This document shows, piece by piece, positions 724 to 35,570 of a DNA stretch of 64,000 nt. The notes beneath the pieces are model-generated. The model did not search any database. It was not told the DNA's origin and saw nothing but the letters and a program-made list of their open reading frames with translations. The position numbers and the translations under genes are program-made. The first letter of the stretch is position 1; each line of letters opens with the position of its first letter. The stretch comes from Candidatus Moraniibacteriota bacterium (lineage in GTDB: Bacteria; Patescibacteriota; Minisyncoccia; Moranbacterales; UBA1568). The DNA is taken from positions 23,545 to 87,544 of the forward strand of contig JBAXOD010000002.1 in NCBI GenBank assembly GCA_037133435.1, in the 5' to 3' direction.

Positions 724-1992
724 TTACTTTTTATTTTCCGCCCGATTTATTTTTTGTCTCAGAGGAACTTCAACGAAACGATACGTCAGGGAGGAGATGA
801 GAATAACGATGGCTAAATAGGCCAGGGCGTAGAGCCAGGCGGTCGGCCAATCGAGACCTTCCATTTTTATCCGGGAAAATTTCTTGAGATAATCAAAAAG
901 AAAAGTCATGAGGAGGAAGTGCATAATATAAACCGAGTAGGAAATGGTGCCCAGGTAAACGAGCGGCTTGAGACTGAGAAGAAGTTCACAGAATCCTTCG
1001 GCATAGACGCTCGCCAGTATGATGGCGGCAAAGGCGATGATGGGAACGATGTCTGGCGTGGAAAAAGTCATGACCATTACGACAATGATCGTAATCAGAA
1101 GCCAGACGCTGTTTTTACTGAGATATTTCCGGCCCCAGTCGACGCGATACAATTCATAGAGGAGCATCCCGAAAAGAAAACCGAAGAAACAACGGATGAA
1201 GCCGAAGTCATAGGTAACATCCAGGGAATACTTTATTCCGGGATCGAGCGCGCCGTTCGTGAGAGCTGAAATCGGATAAAGGAAATATATAATGAACAGA
1301 TAGCCGGCAACGATCCCGAAAAAAATATAAATCCTTTTCCAGCCGGTGATTTTCCGGAAAGGGACGAGAAGAAAAGGAAAAACCACATACATCCACCATT
1401 CGACGCTGATAGACCAGGAAGGGCTGTTCCAGGTAAGAATTTTATACAAACCCATGGATTGGAGAAGGAAGAGATTGGCCCAAATGGTATGCATGTTGAA
1501 CGTATAGACATAATCTGCCGCGGAGAGCGTGAAGTTGGCCCTATACCAAAAATAGAAGACTACCATGCACAAAAAAGAAAACAGATGGAGCGGGTAGATG
1601 CGAGCGAAGCGCGAACGCATGAAGGTAAAGAAGTTTTCCGAAATGCTTTTATTGAATGATTCGGAATACACGTGCATCATGATGAAACCTGAAAGCAGGA
1701 AAAAGAAATCCACCCACAGGTAACCTTTCTGGATGAAATGATCAAAGGGACCGTCCCAGGGTGCCAGCGCGAAGCAAAAGACGTTAAAATGCAGAAGAAC
1801 AACCAAAAGCGCGGCCAGACCGCGAAGAGAGGTGAGTGAAGAAAGATAATTCTGTTTTTCCATATCGTTATCCGTCAATTTGGCGTATTTGCTATTATAC
1901 ACGGTTAAGACTGGGCGGTAAAACGACCGGATCTTCAACTCAAAAGAGGAATTTTTTGATGTTGAATGAACGTACATAACGGTGGTACTCAA
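724..1992 (-). CDS. Acyltransferase family 3 (OafA-like) integral membrane protein
   Basis: ~10 predicted TM segments, N-terminal LRGLAALLVVLLH motif typical of acyltransferase_3. Confidence 0.7.
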   Translation of the reverse strand: MSTTVMYVHSTSKNSSFELKIRSFYRPVLTVYNSKYAKLTDNDMEKQNYLSSLTSLRGLAALLVVLLHFNVFCFALAPWDGPFDHFIQKGYLWVDFFFLLSGFIMMHVYSESFNKSISENFFTFMRSRFARIYPLHLFSFLCMVVFYFWYRANFTLSAADYVYTFNMHTIWANLFLLQSMGLYKILTWNSPSWSISVEWWMYVVFPFLLVPFRKITGWKRIYIFFGIVAGYLFIIYFLYPISALTNGALDPGIKYSLDVTYDFGFIRCFFGFLFGMLLYELYRVDWGRKYLSKNSVWLLITIIVVMVMTFSTPDIVPIIAFAAIILASVYAEGFCELLLSLKPLVYLGTISYSVYIMHFLLMTFLFDYLKKFSRIKMEGLDWPTAWLYALAYLAIVILISSLTYRFVEVPLRQKINRAENKK

Positions 1993-2339
1993 TTCTCAGT
2001 ATCTCTCTCAAATCTCATGTCGAGCTGTACATTCGAAAATTTCGATAGGAGCGCCAACCAGAGGTTGGTCACCCTCTCAGTAAAAAACCATGAAAAAGGA
2101 GAGAAGGCTACTAACTAACCTGACGAGTTTTGAATGGTTTGCCCGCCCTCGACGATCGCTTGGCGAGACGGTCGGGGTCCGCCCGAATCGCTACGCAATC
2201 GTTGCGGACGGGCCTGCCCGCATTGCTAGGCAAAGCATTGCAGGCGGGTAGCCGAAATTTTCGGATTTCAGCCGGCAAGCGGATTTTTTGGCTTATATGT
2301 GCGTTGAGATTTGAGAGAGACACTAAAGGAAGCAAGGGG

Positions 2340-2768
2340 AGCGGGTGATGGAAATTTCGTCCTCGATGCCTGCGGGCATCTCGTAGTCCAGGGCAGCGCT
2401 GAATGCTTCCTAATTCGGTCGCATTCATCGACGCTCGACTATTCGCCTTCGCTCACGTCTCGCTTCTGCCCGTTCGATTCCCATCACCCAATTTTCTCCG
2501 AAAATTTGAGCAGGTGATGGAAATCCTCCTCGCTCCGACTCGGAGCCAGGGCGCTACACACAGAATGCTCGCTTACTCGCATTCGACTCGCGCCCTTCGA
2601 TTCCCACATGGACCGCGGGTGATGGAAATTTCGTCCTCGACGCCTGTTGGCGTCTCGTAGTCCAGGGCAGCGCTGAATGCTCCTATTCGTCGCATTCATT
2701 GACACTCAACTGCTCTCCGCCAACTGGCGGATTGCGTCTCGCTTCTGCCCGTTCGATTCCCATCACCA
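2340..2768. repeat. Three tandem degenerate units (~110-150 bp) each beginning GCGGGTGATGGAAAT and ending CGATTCCCATCACC, i.e. mimicking the 5' acceptor and 3' T-arm/acceptor of the adjacent tRNA-Gly
   Basis: Direct reading: unit starts at ~2340, ~2508, ~2619; ends share gtctcgcttctgcccgttcgattcccatcacc; 12-bp closing helix with one A.C mismatch. Confidence 0.6.
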
Positions 2769-2775
2769 CAAGCAA

Positions 2776-2804
2776 GCAAAAAGGACTCATATGAGTCCTT
2801 TTTA
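2776..2804. terminator. Bidirectional rho-independent terminator hairpin aaaaaggactcatatgagtccttttt
   Basis: Perfect 10-bp palindromic stem flanked by A-run and T-run. Confidence 0.6.
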
Positions 2805-2814
2805 CTTGCCTATG

Positions 2815-2887
2815 AGCGGGTGATGGGAATCGAACCCACCTCTCGACCTTGGAAGGGTCGCATAATAAGCCACTATACGACACCCGC
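2815..2887 (-). tRNA. tRNA-Gly (anticodon TCC)
   Basis: Manual fold: acceptor GCGGGTG/CACCCGC, anticodon stem CGACC/GGTCG, loop CTTCCAA, T-arm GTGGG-TTCGATT-CCCAT. Confidence 0.8.
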
Positions 2888-2997
2888 TTTCTTTCGACAG
2901 CATTATAAGCTTCGAAAACTGCTAAAGCTTCAATAGCTTTTGCAGAAATCCTCAAACCGTTACTCCCTGCCATCGGTCTACCGTTCAATGGTATCTG

Positions 2998-3750
2998 CTA
3001 TCTGTTCTCCGAAACCGTTCCCGACCCGGTCAGTCCCGCGAACGGATCGATATGGATGTTCTCCGCCGCGATACCGATACCGAGGAGAAGCGCTTTCATG
3101 GCATCCGCGAATGCCGGTGCGCCTATCACATAATAGAGCGATTCCCGCCATTCTGGCAAGTATTTCCCTATCATTTCCGCACTGATACGGCCTCGTTCCT
3201 CGCCCGGCTCGGTTGAAGGTCCGGTCTCGGCCGACAAGGTGTACACGTAGGTGAAGTCCGGAAGAATGATCGCCCGGATTTCCGAATGGAATGGCACGTC
3301 CTTTTGAAAACGGTTCGACGATATCAGGACGTATTTTCTCGTGTCGTTTTTCGCGACCGCTTCCAGAAGCATCGACCGTGCCGGGGCCATACCGACGCCT
3401 CCCGACAGGATCGCTATCGGTCGTGAATCCCCTTCCGGAACGGTCGCGTTTCCGAGCGGAGCACTTACCGAGATTTCCTCGCCCGCCCTGAGGTCCCACA
3501 TGGTCTTCTTGAAACCCGTCATGCCCTCGCGCATCACGAATACCAGCTCGGCCTCGCTTGGCGCGGACGCAAGCGAAAGCGGGCGCATCCCGGCACGGAC
3601 GTCCGGCTCGACAAGCCGCTCAGCCGGCACCCGAAGCATCACATACTGCCCGGCACGATACGAGTACCCTTCCGGCTTGGAAAAAAAGAATGCGAGCGTG
3701 CGATCGGCGGTCTCCTCGACCCGAATCAACGTGATGGGATAGAATTCCAT
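2998..3750 (-). CDS. FNR-like oxidoreductase, FAD/NAD(P)-binding domain protein
   Basis: RPLSLAS (RxYS-type FAD motif) and GGVGMAP (GGxGxxP NAD(P) motif); 250 aa. Confidence 0.6.
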   Translation of the reverse strand: MEFYPITLIRVEETADRTLAFFFSKPEGYSYRAGQYVMLRVPAERLVEPDVRAGMRPLSLASAPSEAELVFVMREGMTGFKKTMWDLRAGEEISVSAPLGNATVPEGDSRPIAILSGGVGMAPARSMLLEAVAKNDTRKYVLISSNRFQKDVPFHSEIRAIILPDFTYVYTLSAETGPSTEPGEERGRISAEMIGKYLPEWRESLYYVIGAPAFADAMKALLLGIGIAAENIHIDPFAGLTGSGTVSENR

Positions 3751-3856
3751 ACTCCTAATTCTTTATTCTTTATTCATCATCTAACGATTGTCGAGGCGCT
3801 CGGAATCGCTCAGGCATTCGCTGGGCGTCCGGCGTATGTCGGACGAACCAGGGCGG

Positions 3857-4025
3857 GTCTACCTCCCCTGCGGAGCCACGACCGTCCACTGGATGGTCGG
3901 ACACGAATCTTGTCGGGGCACCCGGAATCGGACCGGGACTACCTCCCCTTCGGGGCCACGACCGTCCATCGGGACGGTCGGATAACGTTCTTGTCGGGGC
4001 ACCCGGAATCGGACCGGGACTACCT
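3857..4025. repeat. Two tandem ~84-bp units, each = tRNA-Pro 3' half (cttgtcggggcacccggaatcggaccgggactacct) plus a GC hairpin spacer
   Basis: Exact 36-bp copies at 3909-3944 and 3990-4025; flanking spacers ccacgaccgtcca...ggtcgga also repeated. Confidence 0.7.
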
Positions 4026-4064
4026 GCTCCCAAAGCAGACGTACTACCACTATACTATGCCCCG
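3994..4064 (-). tRNA. tRNA-Pro (anticodon TGG)
   Basis: Manual fold of reverse complement: acceptor CGGGGCA/TGCCCCG, anticodon stem TCTGC/GCAGG, loop TTTGGGA, T-arm CCCGG-TCCGATT-CCGGG. Confidence 0.8.
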
Positions 4065-4090
4065 ACTATTACCCCGACAATAACGCTATC

Positions 4091-4126
4091 CCCAAAGCAG
4101 ACGTACTACCACTATACTATGCCCCG
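4091..4126 (-). pseudogene. Orphan duplicate of tRNA-Pro(TGG) 5' half (through anticodon loop)
   Basis: cccaaagcagacgtactaccactatactatgccccg identical to 4029-4064 but lacks 3' half. Confidence 0.65.
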
Positions 4127-4369
4127 CCAAATAATTTCAATTTTCTCTTTACGGACGAGGCTCGCCCTGATGGGCGACCCGACAATGAACTCGTCCCCGA
4201 AGCAGGCGTACTACTGACATTCATATCTCTTCCCAGTCTACGGACTCTCCGGGAAAAAGCAATCCCGCCTCCTGAAAGAGGCGGGACGGCCCTATCTTTT
4301 ATTTCGTGCAGTACGGAACCCGCCAATGGAAAACCGTCCCTCCGACGGAATCCCGCGAATACTCGCGTA

Positions 4370-19987: not shown

Positions 19988-20049
19988 GGAGAGATGACCG
20001 AGTGGTTGAAGGTACCGCTCTCGAAAAGCGGCAGGCCCGAAAGGGCCTC
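19988..20049 (+). pseudogene. 62-nt 5' fragment of tRNA-Ser(CGA) (acceptor through first half of T-loop), exact duplicate of 20391-20452
   Basis: ggagagatgaccgagtggttgaaggtaccgctctcgaaaagcggcaggcccgaaagggcctcgagggttcg identical in both copies; diverges inside T-loop. Confidence 0.75.
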
Positions 20050-20122
20050 GAGGGTTCGTCCGGCATACGCCGGACGCCCCGCGCATGCGGGGCGAATCCC
20101 ACATTTAAGGAGAAGGCTGCAT

Positions 20123-20386
20123 ATGTTCTATGTCTATATCCTCAGAAGCAAGAAAGACAATGACTTCTATATCGGGTCAACCGGAGATTTAAAAAGAAGA
20201 ATGAAAGAACATAATCGCGGAGTAGTGGAATCAACAAGACACAGACGACCTCTTGAACTCCTATGCTATGAAGCGTACAACTATAAAGAAGAAGCTCAAG
20301 CGAGAGAGCGTTTTCTAAAAAGCAGTGACGGAAAGAAAGATTTACGGAAACGATTGACTCGCAGTTTGGAAAAAAAGGAAAAATAA
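20123..20386 (+). CDS. Small GIY-YIG nuclease-domain protein (YhbQ/UPF0213-like)
   Basis: MFYVYILRSKKDNDFYIGSTGDLKRRMKEHN = GIY-YIG motif; AAGGAG SD 8 nt upstream of ATG at 20123; 87 aa. Confidence 0.75.
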   Translation: MFYVYILRSKKDNDFYIGSTGDLKRRMKEHNRGVVESTRHRRPLELLCYEAYNYKEEAQARERFLKSSDGKKDLRKRLTRSLEKKEK

Positions 20387-20390
20387 GTAC

Positions 20391-20477
20391 GGAGAGATGA
20401 CCGAGTGGTTGAAGGTACCGCTCTCGAAAAGCGGCAGGCCCGAAAGGGCCTCGAGGGTTCGAATCCCTCTCTCTCCT
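20391..20477 (+). tRNA. tRNA-Ser (anticodon CGA)
   Basis: Acceptor GGAGAGA/TCTCTCC, anticodon loop CTCGAAA, long variable arm CAGGCCCGAAAGGGCCTC, T-arm GAGGG-TTCGAAT-CCCTC. Confidence 0.85.
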
Positions 20478-20486
20478 CACTGAAAG

Positions 20487-20523: not shown

Positions 20524-20529
20524 GGTTTG

Positions 20530-20665
20530 AATGGGAAAAAGGGATTCGAAAGCCGGACTGCTAGCAGGCAGGAGGCGGGGTCGCGACCTCGAGCACGGCC
20601 TTCGGAGGCCGGACGCTCGAGAGTTGTGACCGAGTCCCTCCCTTTCCTCAAAAGCGAATGACCGT
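20530..20665 (+). ncRNA. Structured tRNA-Ser-derived element 1 (14-bp closing helix GGAAAAAGGGATTC/GAGTCCCTCCCTTTCC); candidate small RNA or pseudo-tRNA
   Basis: 3' end gagtccctccctttcctca resembles tRNA-Ser 3' end; sits between two terminators. Confidence 0.3.
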
Positions 20666-20706
20666 CCCGATCATATTGGGGCGGTTATTCGTTTCTTGTG
20701 AGATGG

Positions 20707-20790
20707 AAGAGGGATTCGAAGGGATATGGAAATGTGAACGATTTCACGTTTCCATGTCCCCGGCCCGCAGGGGAATCCCTCCCTTTCCTC
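20707..20790 (+). ncRNA. Structured tRNA-Ser-derived element 2 (closing helix GGAAGAGGGATTC/GAATCCCTCCCTTTCC, internal 13-bp hairpin ATGGAAATGTGAA/TTCACGTTTCCAT)
   Basis: Direct reading of complementary segments; immediately followed by terminator. Confidence 0.3.
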
Positions 20791-20796
20791 AACGGA

Positions 20797-20833
20797 AATC
20801 AAAAGACTCCTGAATGGGGTCTTTTGATTTTTG
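20797..20833 (+). terminator. Rho-independent terminator
   Basis: aaatcaaaagactcctgaatggggtcttttgattttt. Confidence 0.65.
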
Positions 20834-21030
20834 TGTGTTGTGTTAATGGATGGATTCGAAATTGCAGGCATCTCAGGAAATCCGGCATTTCATTTGTCGC
20901 ATAGCGTCTGTCTTTCCACCGAAATGGATTGCGTGTCAAAGGTACGGATGATACAGTAAGGATGTTTTCGGATAATTCGGAAGATACCGAACAGTACCAT
21001 TCGAAGAATCAGACAGCCAAACGCTCTCAT

Positions 21031-34817: not shown

Positions 34818-34888
34818 CGGAGTGTGGTATAGTGGTATTACGCACGATTCGGGTTCGTGTAATCCGGGTTCGATTCCCGGCACTCCGA
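34818..34888 (+). tRNA. tRNA-Pro (anticodon CGG)
   Basis: Acceptor CGGAGTG/CACTCCG, anticodon stem CACGA/TCGTG, loop TTCGGGT, T-arm CCGGG-TTCGATT-CCCGG. Confidence 0.75.
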
Positions 34889-35026
34889 CAAAATAGCACC
34901 GGAAATATACGGTTCTACGGGTTTACGAAGTATCCGGCGCATGCCGGACGATTATAGATTTCTATCCGGCTACCTCATATCCACGCGACAAGCATACCGT
35001 GGTTTCCCGGTACTCCGACGAATCAG

Positions 35027-35382: not shown

Positions 35383-35472
35383 GCCGAGGTGGCGCCCGCC
35401 CGCAACGCTTCGCGTAGCGATGCGGGCAGGAAACTGGTAGACGCACCAGGTTTAGGTCCTGGCGGGAGCAAG
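35383..35472 (+). pseudogene. Partial tRNA-Leu copy: acceptor+D-stem, 36-nt GC hairpin inserted in D-loop, anticodon arm, no T-arm
   Basis: gccgaggtggcg[cccgcccgcaacgcttcgcgtagcgatgcgggcagg]aaactggtagacgcaccaggtttaggtcctggcgggagcaag vs intact copy 12 nt downstream. Confidence 0.7.
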
Positions 35473-35483
35473 AAACGTATATT

Positions 35484-35570
35484 GCCGAGGTGGCGAAATT
35501 GGTAGACGCACCAGGTTTAGGTCCTGGCGGGAGCAATCCCTTGGGAGTTCGAGTCTCCCCTTCGGCACCA
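35484..35570 (+). tRNA. tRNA-Leu (anticodon TAG), CCA encoded
   Basis: Acceptor GCCGAGG, anticodon loop TTTAGGT, long variable arm, T-arm GGGAG-TTCGAGT-CTCCC, 3' ACCA. Confidence 0.85.

Follow-up and report, generated by a model that had tools for sequence, protein, structure and literature searches.

The three tandem units that follow the tRNA-Gly gene in a 64-kb stretch of DNA from a Candidatus Moraniibacteriota bacterium (contig JBAXOD010000002.1; the whole stretch of 64,000 nucleotides is referred to here as the window) appear, on balance, to be modules of the type known in Escherichia coli as tRNA-linked repeats (TLRs). Encoded on the strand of the tRNA-Gly gene, they would be structured RNAs that are made by transcriptional read-through and trimmed by the enzymes that act on tRNA ends. 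We infer their transcription, processing and RNA function from the architecture of the array, its conservation and covariation among relatives, the strand bias of its pairing and the analogy with TLRs.

Architecture of the array downstream of tRNA-Gly

The tRNA-Gly(UCC) gene (2814-2887, minus strand) was identified with ARAGORN and with the Rfam tRNA model (56.1 bits), and its 3' end (nucleotides 53-73, GTTCGATTCCCATCACCCGCT) is the source of the copies found in both orientations in the units. Directly behind it lies T1, a 48-nt hairpin resembling an intrinsic terminator (2767-2813, minus strand), which was recognized as an inverted repeat with a stem of ~22 bp and a U-rich tail. Along the tRNA's strand the array runs from tRNA-Gly through the T1 hairpin to U3, U2 and U1, and it lies to the left of tRNA-Gly on the plus strand. 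Read in this direction, a unit has three parts, namely a 5' arm that is an exact reverse complement (17-18 nt) of tRNA-Gly nucleotides 53-70, covering the T-loop, T-stem and acceptor 3' strand, a structured core of 100-125 nt, and a 3' arm of the pattern ATT(T/C)CCATCACCCGCTC that is a direct copy of the final 16-17 nt of the tRNA and carries the copied discriminator end CACCCGCU.

U3 (2612-2771, minus strand), a long or 'A' type unit nearest the tRNA, was delimited by its direct and inverted repeats and matches the covariance model of the family with 156.1 bits (E 7e-36). Its 5' arm GGTGATGGGAATCGAAC (2751-2767) and 3' arm ATTTCCATCACCCGC (2615-2629) enclose a core made up of helices P2 and P3, hairpin 2 and hairpin 1. 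U1 (2338-2492, minus strand), the A-type unit farthest from the tRNA, is 85% identical to U3, shows the same kind of inverted repeats and scores 169.1 bits (E 5e-39); its 5' arm GGGTGATGGGAATCGAAC (2472-2489) is the exact 18-nt reverse complement of tRNA nucleotides 53-70 and its 3' arm is AATTTCCATCACCCGCTC (2339-2356). Between them lies the short or 'B' type unit U2 (~2505-2611, minus strand), with a truncated 5' arm TGGGAATCGAAGGG (2593-2606), a 3' arm GATTTCCATCACCTGCTC (2508-2525) and a shorter core of its own, differing from that of U1 and U3, in which a GGGCGC/GCGCCC stem surrounds a GAATGC/GCATTC hairpin and is accompanied by a GCTCCG/CGGAGC hairpin. The 3' arms match the tRNA-Gly end at 16 of 18 positions in U1 and U2, at 14 of 15 up to C72 in U3 (ATTTCCATCACCCGC) and at 17 of 17 in one unit of a relative (L011a). 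The motif GGTGATGGAAAT occurs seven times in the window with at most one mismatch, against 0.27 occurrences expected by chance, and six of the seven lie within 2344-2830.

A preliminary description of this locus, made on the plus strand, had reported three units of which each starts with the tRNA-Gly 5' acceptor strand fused to the complement of its T-stem and finishes with the T-arm and acceptor 3' strand. U1 and U3 have the ends so described (start GCGGGTGATGGAAAT, finish GTTCGATTCCCATCACC on the plus strand), and U2 fits only partly, as it starts with GCAGGTGATGGAAAT and ends with CCCTTCGATTCCCACATGG, lacks the TCACC acceptor part, has GCAGG for GCGGG and contains the other, shorter core. 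The supposed fusion dissolves when the tRNA's strand is read, where the order is the reverse complement of nucleotides 53-70, then the core, then a direct 3'-end repeat. The closing minihelix of 12-13 bp is likewise present on the plus strand, with one A.C mismatch in U1 and U3; this mismatch, taken to be conserved, is specific to the present genome, and relatives have a perfectly paired GGGAAT instead.

The interiors of the units were rightly regarded as unrelated to tRNA. ARAGORN finds no tRNA-like or tmRNA gene within them, an Rfam search over 1900-3000 (gathering thresholds, and E <= 10) gave no credible family in the units, with chance miRNA-type matches on the terminator only, and the tRNA, tmRNA and mascRNA models match no unit at E <= 10 on either strand, finding the genuine tRNA-Gly alone. 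The units also lack the T-stem 5' strand beside the T-loop that a tRNA-like gene would have. Searches of the 64-kb window with blastn and the covariance model gave no extra copies other than the analogous, non-homologous units at other tRNA genes that are described below.

Several known kinds of element were considered and rejected. As the preliminary description held, the array does not qualify as a CRISPR array or as a simple duplication of the tRNA, given that its motifs occur in both orientations, its 'spacers' are themselves repeated (U1 and U3) and kept between genomes, and its interiors are not derived from tRNA. A retroviral-type primer-binding site does not agree with complementarity that ends at nucleotide 70 and excludes CCA. 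The consensus of integron attC sites is GTTRRRY, from which the T-loop GTTCGAT deviates, and the partner core site is missing. An origin of the 5' arm by extension of the T1 palindrome is speculation only, the symmetry being broken at the acceptor end.

Distribution among relatives and array dynamics

The window belongs to a metagenomic contig (ENA ERZ4200879 NODE_72), and its closest genome relatives are metagenome-assembled genomes labelled Candidatus Moranbacteria or Moraniibacteriota (Patescibacteria). Syntenic loci, denoted here by L and a number, were collected with the flanking gene for a 250-amino-acid NAD-binding oxidoreductase (2998-3750, minus strand) as the anchor; four came from genomes, seven from metagenomes and nine through individual homologous proteins, and the gene order tRNA-Pro, oxidoreductase, tRNA-Gly is common to all of them. 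A terminator hairpin and one to at least three units follow the tRNA in all 14 distinct loci that have an anchor protein of 58-83% identity and sequence past tRNA-Gly.

The composition of the array varies among these loci. B-type units are present also in L006, L008, L010, L022 and L025, and the A and B types stand in different orders from locus to locus. A second copy of the tRNA's terminator follows a unit in L011 and L022, and a decayed or contig-truncated copy does so in L012 and L013. The tail of the terminator meets the 5' arm at a junction, GTTTACTTAC-GGTGATGGG, that is seen again in several genomes ahead of A units and of B units alike, and thus the module that is duplicated consists of terminator, 5' arm, core and 3' arm. 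Copies truncated at the 5' end and retaining the 3' arm are found in L006, L010 and L023, and the 3' arm is missing in L008 and L024, which retain the 5' arm beside T1. Unequal recombination between the copies of the tRNA 3' end would explain how such an array grows, shrinks and is shuffled. In one relative (the locus of protein P0032), a gene for a Y1 transposase of the IS200/IS605 or REP-associated type (REP, repetitive extragenic palindromic) lies just downstream of the tRNA-Gly position; transposases of the Y1 type act on DNA hairpins.

Conserved fold and covariation of the units

Sixteen units from 13 sources were aligned with a covariance model built from eight units, and a consensus fold was computed with RNAalifold. 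In this fold, the closing helix P1 (13-16 bp) is formed by the two arms and encloses helix P2 (GGGCAG/CTGCCC). P2 in turn surrounds two elements, namely the short helix P3, which encloses a variable hairpin, and a hairpin of 7 bp whose conserved loop of 13 nt contains GGA; outside P2 stands a separate hairpin of 5-6 bp. Across the 16 units, 93.8% of cells are paired and double changes occur in 20 of the 40 pairs, figures to be read with the shared descent of the units in mind and with the pairing somewhat inflated by the fitting of the alignment to a covariance model. None of 500 shuffles matches the observed pairing or double changes, and partners slid out of register pair at 35-43%.

The compensatory changes sit in the internal helices. 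P2 has been swapped as a whole to GGTGAC/GTCACC in L012, L013 and L023, and the small hairpin occurs as GATGCC/GGCATC, GACGCC/GGCGTC, GGCGTC/GACGCC and GGCGCC/GGCGCC. P1, on the other hand, varies almost solely by G.U pairs and has a double change in only one of its 14 pairs, because both of its strands copy an invariant tRNA sequence; it is therefore weakly informative on covariation. The preliminary description had proposed that related genomes be used to tell structured segments from non-conserved spacer, and in the relatives the segments are indeed structured and conserved, the compensation lying in the internal helices rather than, with that single pair excepted, in the closing helix.

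Conservation extends to the parts of the core that do not pair, at 0.82 for unpaired as for paired columns. The cores are 62-88% identical between genomes, whereas the intergenic DNA upstream of tRNA-Gly is at the level of shuffled sequence. The units are rich in GGA on the tRNA strand, with 4-7 GGA against 0-4 TCC in 15 of the 16 aligned matches, and with 11 GGA against 3 TCC in a composite match of 231 nt in L010. Judged from these alignments, the conservation, the covariation and the constancy of the loops agree better with selection acting on a folded RNA than with scars in decay.

Probable coding strand of the units

The units are most likely encoded on the strand of tRNA-Gly itself (the minus strand of the window), as is suggested by four features of the sequences: the ratio of G.U to A.C pairs, the folding energies, the purine-rich loops and the orientation of the terminators. 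In the alignment of 16 units, 41 cells (in 25 pair columns) are G.U pairs on the tRNA strand, against 10 cells (in eight columns) that are A.C here and would be G.U on the opposite strand, and the A.C mismatch of the closing helix on the plus strand is itself a G.U pair on the minus strand. All nine long units that were tested fold more stably on the tRNA strand, by 0.4 to 10 kcal/mol. For U1 the energies are -64.3 kcal/mol (z -5.1) on this strand and -56.7 kcal/mol (z -3.5) on the opposite one, and for U3 they are -68.9 and -59.2 kcal/mol, respectively. Unpaired columns of the core comprise, on the tRNA strand, 39% A, 38% G, 16% C and 7% U (77% purine), and purine-rich loops are usual in structured RNAs.

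A gain in stability of 8-14 kcal/mol on the tRNA strand is shown by the hairpins that follow tRNA-Gly, tRNA-Ser and each of the tRNA-Ser units described below. T1, for example, has -33.3 kcal/mol on this strand, where its imperfect pairs are G.U, and -22.3 kcal/mol on the other, where they are not. The placement of terminators after units, oriented with the tRNA, implies that transcription passes through the units in that direction. Thus, the strand evidence favours co-orientation with tRNA-Gly over the inverted orientation that had been assigned to the units in the preliminary description. Its suggestion of a family of tRNA-end-mimicking RNAs survives in part, in that there is a structured family whose ends copy the tRNA-Gly end and whose relatives show compensatory changes, but not as a minihelix on the opposite strand.

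Comparison with TLRs and other known systems

The TLRs of E. coli are sequences in tRNA and rRNA operons whose last 18-19 nt are those of the 3' end of the upstream tRNA or rRNA; 22 are known, most of them without a known function (PMC8144298). They include the 178-bp rtT (rttR) repeats of tyrT/tyrV (Egan & Landy 1978, Rudd 1999, cited in PMC8144298). The present units are like them in standing directly downstream of a tRNA gene, in tandem arrays and on its strand, the orientation being judged here from sequence, and in ending with a copy of the upstream tRNA's end, which is of 18-19 nt in E. coli and here agrees at 16-17 of 18 positions; taken unit by unit, the copies are imperfect, from 14/15 to 17/17. 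The units behind tRNA-Ser (15-16 of 18) and tRNA-Pro(CGG) (16 of 18) likewise end with a copy of their own tRNA's 3' end.

In the tyrT-tyrV-rttR region of E. coli K-12, the 19-nt end of tRNA-Tyr is present six times in direct orientation, and in rttR, as here, an upstream segment pairs with the tRNA-end copy and closes the unit (GGGGAAGGAT/ATCCTTCCCC). The covariance model of the present units ranks four E. coli units at the top in the tyrT region, all on the tRNA strand, with 9 bits; these matches rest on the closing helix alone and skip the core, so that neither sequence nor covariance homology to the E. coli units is seen. The cores are not homologous and contain four helices with covariation across genomes, the 5' arm is an exact inverted copy of 17-18 nt that includes the T-loop, the tRNA end is encoded without CCA, and the host belongs to Patescibacteria (Moraniibacteriota) rather than Enterobacterales. 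The present family is, by architecture, an analogue of the E. coli TLRs and not a homologue. TLR papers were found in a literature search, and none of those found deals with such units in Patescibacteria.

Among the E. coli TLRs, rrA, rrB and rrF lie between the dual terminators of rrnA, rrnB and rrnD, are small RNAs that arise when the first terminator is read through, carry a repeat that has been proposed as a 3'-processing signal, and bind CsrA with their GGA motifs (PMC8144298). A stable RNA gene, a first terminator, a unit ending in a copy of the RNA's 3' end and a second terminator succeed each other in the same way here, at tRNA-Ser and in L011 and L022 (in L012 and L013 the second terminator is a partial copy), and the present units are likewise rich in GGA on the tRNA strand. 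The E. coli RNAs differ in being linked to 5S rRNA and not to a tRNA, and there is no sequence similarity.

Attachment-site duplications made by integrases, and cis-mobilizable elements (CIMEs), occur at the 3' ends of tRNA genes and are the other natural comparison. In these too, direct repeats of the tRNA 3' end flank DNA that is inserted downstream of an intact tRNA gene, accretion is in tandem and presence or absence varies between relatives. The present inserts differ from them in being just 100-200 bp long, in carrying no recombinase, in including an inverted copy of the tRNA end and in keeping their core structure through compensatory changes with an RNA-like strand bias.

Analogous units at other tRNA genes of the window

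Imperfect direct copies of a tRNA's own 3' end lie downstream of it, on its strand, at four of the five tRNA genes in the window, those for Gly, Ser, Pro(CGG) and Pro(UGG). CCA is not encoded in four of the five genes (2814-2887, 3993-4064, 20391-20478, 34818-34889 and 35484-35570), the discriminator being followed by CA and another base; tRNA-Leu (35484-35570) is the only one that encodes CCA and the only one without a downstream repeat of its 3' end.

The closest parallel to the Gly array is at tRNA-Ser (20391-20478, plus strand), where the order is terminator, S1, terminator, S2, terminator. S1 (20528-20650, plus strand) ends with the 3' arm GAGTCCCTCCCTTTCCTC, identical to the tRNA-Ser 3' end at 15 of 18 positions, and folds with -68.3 (z -5.2) on the tRNA strand and -54.0 (z -3.1) on the opposite one. 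S2 (20690-20793, plus strand) has a 3' arm identical at 16 of 18 positions and z values of -5.6 and -3.8, respectively. Both arms of S1 and of S2 derive from the tRNA-Ser end, and for the terminator hairpins that flank S2, T2 (~20651-20697, plus strand) and T3 (~20792-20835, plus strand), the tRNA strand is favoured by 10-14 kcal/mol. In an alignment, S2 shares with the B-type units of the Gly array a GGG...CCC stem and the loop GAACGATTTC; one core is thus combined with arms that are particular to different tRNAs. A looser unit (34890-35019, plus strand) follows tRNA-Pro(CGG) (34818-34889) and ends with GTTTCCCGGTACTCCGAC, which is identical to the 3' end of that tRNA at 16 of 18 positions.

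Behind tRNA-Pro(UGG) (3993-4064, minus strand), two direct repeats of 81 nt contain the last 35 nt of the tRNA and a hairpin (3854-4025), and a third, decayed copy with an insert in the T-loop lies at ~3790-3850. Upstream of the same gene are copies of its 5' half at 4090-4126 and ~4196-4215, and in L004 two tRNA-Pro genes are called at the corresponding position.

Proposed mechanism and alternative explanations

In the reading that we favour, a polymerase that passes T1 behind tRNA-Gly would transcribe the units, each of which would fold into a multi-helix RNA with a closing helix of 13-16 bp that mimics the acceptor stem and T stem of tRNA-Gly in their stacked form. As the tRNA's own 3' end makes up the 3' strand of this helix, tRNA end-trimming enzymes may free the unit as a discrete small RNA, with a 3' cut of the RNase Z or RNase E type and possibly one by RNase P. 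The amount of the unit RNA would then track transcription of the tRNA operon, and the conserved, unpaired segments, purine-rich and rich in GGA, would be its working surface, for instance in protein binding.

A number of observations, besides the inflation of the pairing figure mentioned above, weigh against this reading. No promoter was identified for the units, T1 resembles a strong terminator, so that read-through is perhaps rare, and in the array of the window there is no clear terminator after U1. The excess of G.U pairs may partly stem from strand-biased C-to-T mutation instead of selection on the RNA, and for the unit behind tRNA-Pro(CGG), either an exception or a decayed copy, the better fold is that of the opposite strand. 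The truncated and one-armed copies mean that the closing helix is not always kept. Finally, in four syntenic relatives with an anchor protein of 55-59% identity (L026, L027, L030 and L031) the next gene comes straight after tRNA-Gly, with neither hairpin nor units; hence the block is an insertion, lineage-specific and dispensable, that separates the tRNA 3' end from the gene behind it. Two of these, L026 and L031, are the only relatives with an altered T-arm in tRNA-Gly.

The TLR architecture is found here in a very distant lineage with a reduced genome, with unrelated sequence, clear covariation and arms that match tRNA-Gly, tRNA-Ser and, more loosely, tRNA-Pro(CGG). This suggests that structured RNAs capped with a copy of an upstream tRNA's 3' end are a recurrent solution and not a peculiarity of enterobacteria. 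The family would also be a compact model, with four helices in ~150 nt and natural variants, for testing the tRNA-end copy as a processing signal. Annotators should be aware that units of this sort can be mistaken for inverted pieces of a tRNA or for the scars of an integrase.

It is possible, though we think it rather unlikely, that the units are products of DNA-level events with no role as RNA, that is, leftovers or miniature non-autonomous modules produced when site-specific or break-induced recombination took place repeatedly at the tRNA-Gly 3' end; the extra copies of that end would then be duplicated attachment sites, and the hairpins would be palindromes carried along as passengers. Much in the architecture agrees with this, since direct repeats of the tRNA 3' end bound each module, often together with a duplicated terminator, the copy number runs from one to at least three with A and B in variable order, 5'-truncated copies retain the 3' repeat, and the whole block is absent from the four relatives just named. 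The partial tRNA copies with small palindromic insertions upstream of tRNA-Ser, tRNA-Pro(UGG) and tRNA-Leu, one of which adjoins a GIY-YIG gene (see below), and the Y1 transposase gene at this position in one relative point the same way. However, scars in decay would not maintain four internal helices by double substitutions, loops as conserved as stems and a 41:10 bias of G.U to A.C, and the conservation of the cores far exceeds that of the adjoining intergenic DNA. Apart from the Y1 gene, no integrase or recombinase was identified among the flanking genes (Pfam, positions 1 to ~8400) or among the Pfam marks in the gene tables of 12 loci. The exact pattern TGCCCGTTCGATTCCCAT, from the junction of core and T-loop and the sole pattern scanned, gave in viral contigs one chance match in a coding region, with no further similarity. 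Neither a recombinase gene nor a matching attP, either of which would mark an integrated element bounded by attL and attR, thus emerged from these Pfam and viral scans. The serial integrase scars offered as an option in the preliminary description have no direct support, and are retained here, at the same low probability, as an account of origin. Recombination of this kind may explain how the modules arose and is compatible with a function of their RNA.

A wider proposal, which we regard as doubtful, is that the units belong to a modular family of structured RNAs in Patescibacteria that spreads among tRNA genes and gains inverted and direct copies of the end of its host tRNA. It is raised because the B-type units at tRNA-Gly and S2 at tRNA-Ser share a core and have tRNA-specific arms. 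Arrival of such a module might need a nuclease or recombination at T-loops, for which the GIY-YIG gene beside the split tRNA-Ser copy would be an example. If true, this would be a previously undescribed route to tRNA-end-capped RNAs and could explain how TLRs in general came about, for which neither a function nor an origin has gained acceptance although E. coli TLRs have been known since 1978.

We consider it improbable that the units are, as first read, small-RNA genes on the plus strand, convergent with tRNA-Gly and mimicking its acceptor/T-arm minihelix. On that strand the exact T-loop sequence GTTCGATTCCC is kept, the nearly palindromic hairpin 2767-2813 directly after U3 could terminate transcription in both directions, T1 is a perfect palindrome in several relatives, and the fold is again better than that of shuffles (z -3.5). 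Against this stand the G.U to A.C asymmetry and the lower stability in all nine long units described above, unpaired regions that would be 77% pyrimidine, and the loss of 11 kcal/mol by T1 in the window. In L011 and L013, moreover, the terminator copy that precedes the unit stands just a few bases from the unit's start on the plus strand, too close for a promoter to fit in between. After CCCAT the acceptor part of the helix is not conserved, the 3' side of the earlier reading being CACC, GACC, ACC, ATGG, CGAC or CAAC, and neither ARAGORN nor Rfam sees a tRNA-like gene.

Equally hard to favour is a model in which the 5' arm is the functional part, and would pair in a read-through RNA with the 3' half of tRNA-Gly, extending T1 into a duplex of ~38 bp that would mark this RNA for cleavage by RNase III or degradation, or would modulate maturation of tRNA-Gly. 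This duplex forms in the predicted minimum-energy fold of tRNA, T1 and U3 (2612-2887, minus strand; -143.4 kcal/mol, z -10), in which the 5' acceptor strand of the tRNA also pairs with the 3' arm of the unit, as an alternative to a cloverleaf and a closed unit. Over 17-18 nt the 5' arm is complementary to the genuine tRNA without a mismatch, which in the window is a better match than that to the unit's own 3' arm, and it is kept beside T1 where the 3' arm has been lost (L008 and L024). Co-transcriptional folding, however, should lock the cloverleaf before the unit is made, and the conserved, covarying core and the distal units would be left unexplained.

Partial tRNA copies and neighbouring palindromes

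Upstream of tRNA-Ser, a partial 5' copy of the gene (19988 to ~20055) matches it up to the T-loop and has a GC-rich palindromic insert after TTCG. An open reading frame of 87 amino acids for a GIY-YIG nuclease (20123-20386; Pfam E 8.5e-18) lies between this copy and the intact gene, and the region 19988-20478 looks like a nuclease-associated cassette that has duplicated part of the tRNA-Ser gene. The segment upstream of tRNA-Leu (35384-35483) similarly holds a partial copy of ~50 nt of the 5' part of that gene, whose D-loop contains a GC-rich palindrome of 36 nt (~35394-35431) that is 86-87% similar to two palindromes standing side by side at 2178-2249, close to the Gly array.

A small palindromic element (TCCGGC.ATAC/GCAT.GCCGGACG) is present at three tRNA-linked sites (3814-3849, 20051-20088 and 34933-34951), at two of which it directly follows the TTCG of a copied T-loop, a placement suggestive of a REP-like hairpin that accompanies T-loop sequences or targets them. 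A segment of 319 bp (2002-2320), which separates the Gly units from an acyltransferase gene, has perfect 16-bp inverted repeats at its ends (TCTCTCTCAAATCTCA / TGAGATTTGAGAGAGA). Within it, positions 2055-2097 resemble a preQ1-I riboswitch at a sub-threshold 21.1 bits (gathering score 39; E 0.14), and this match is followed by AAAAAGGAG and an ATG.

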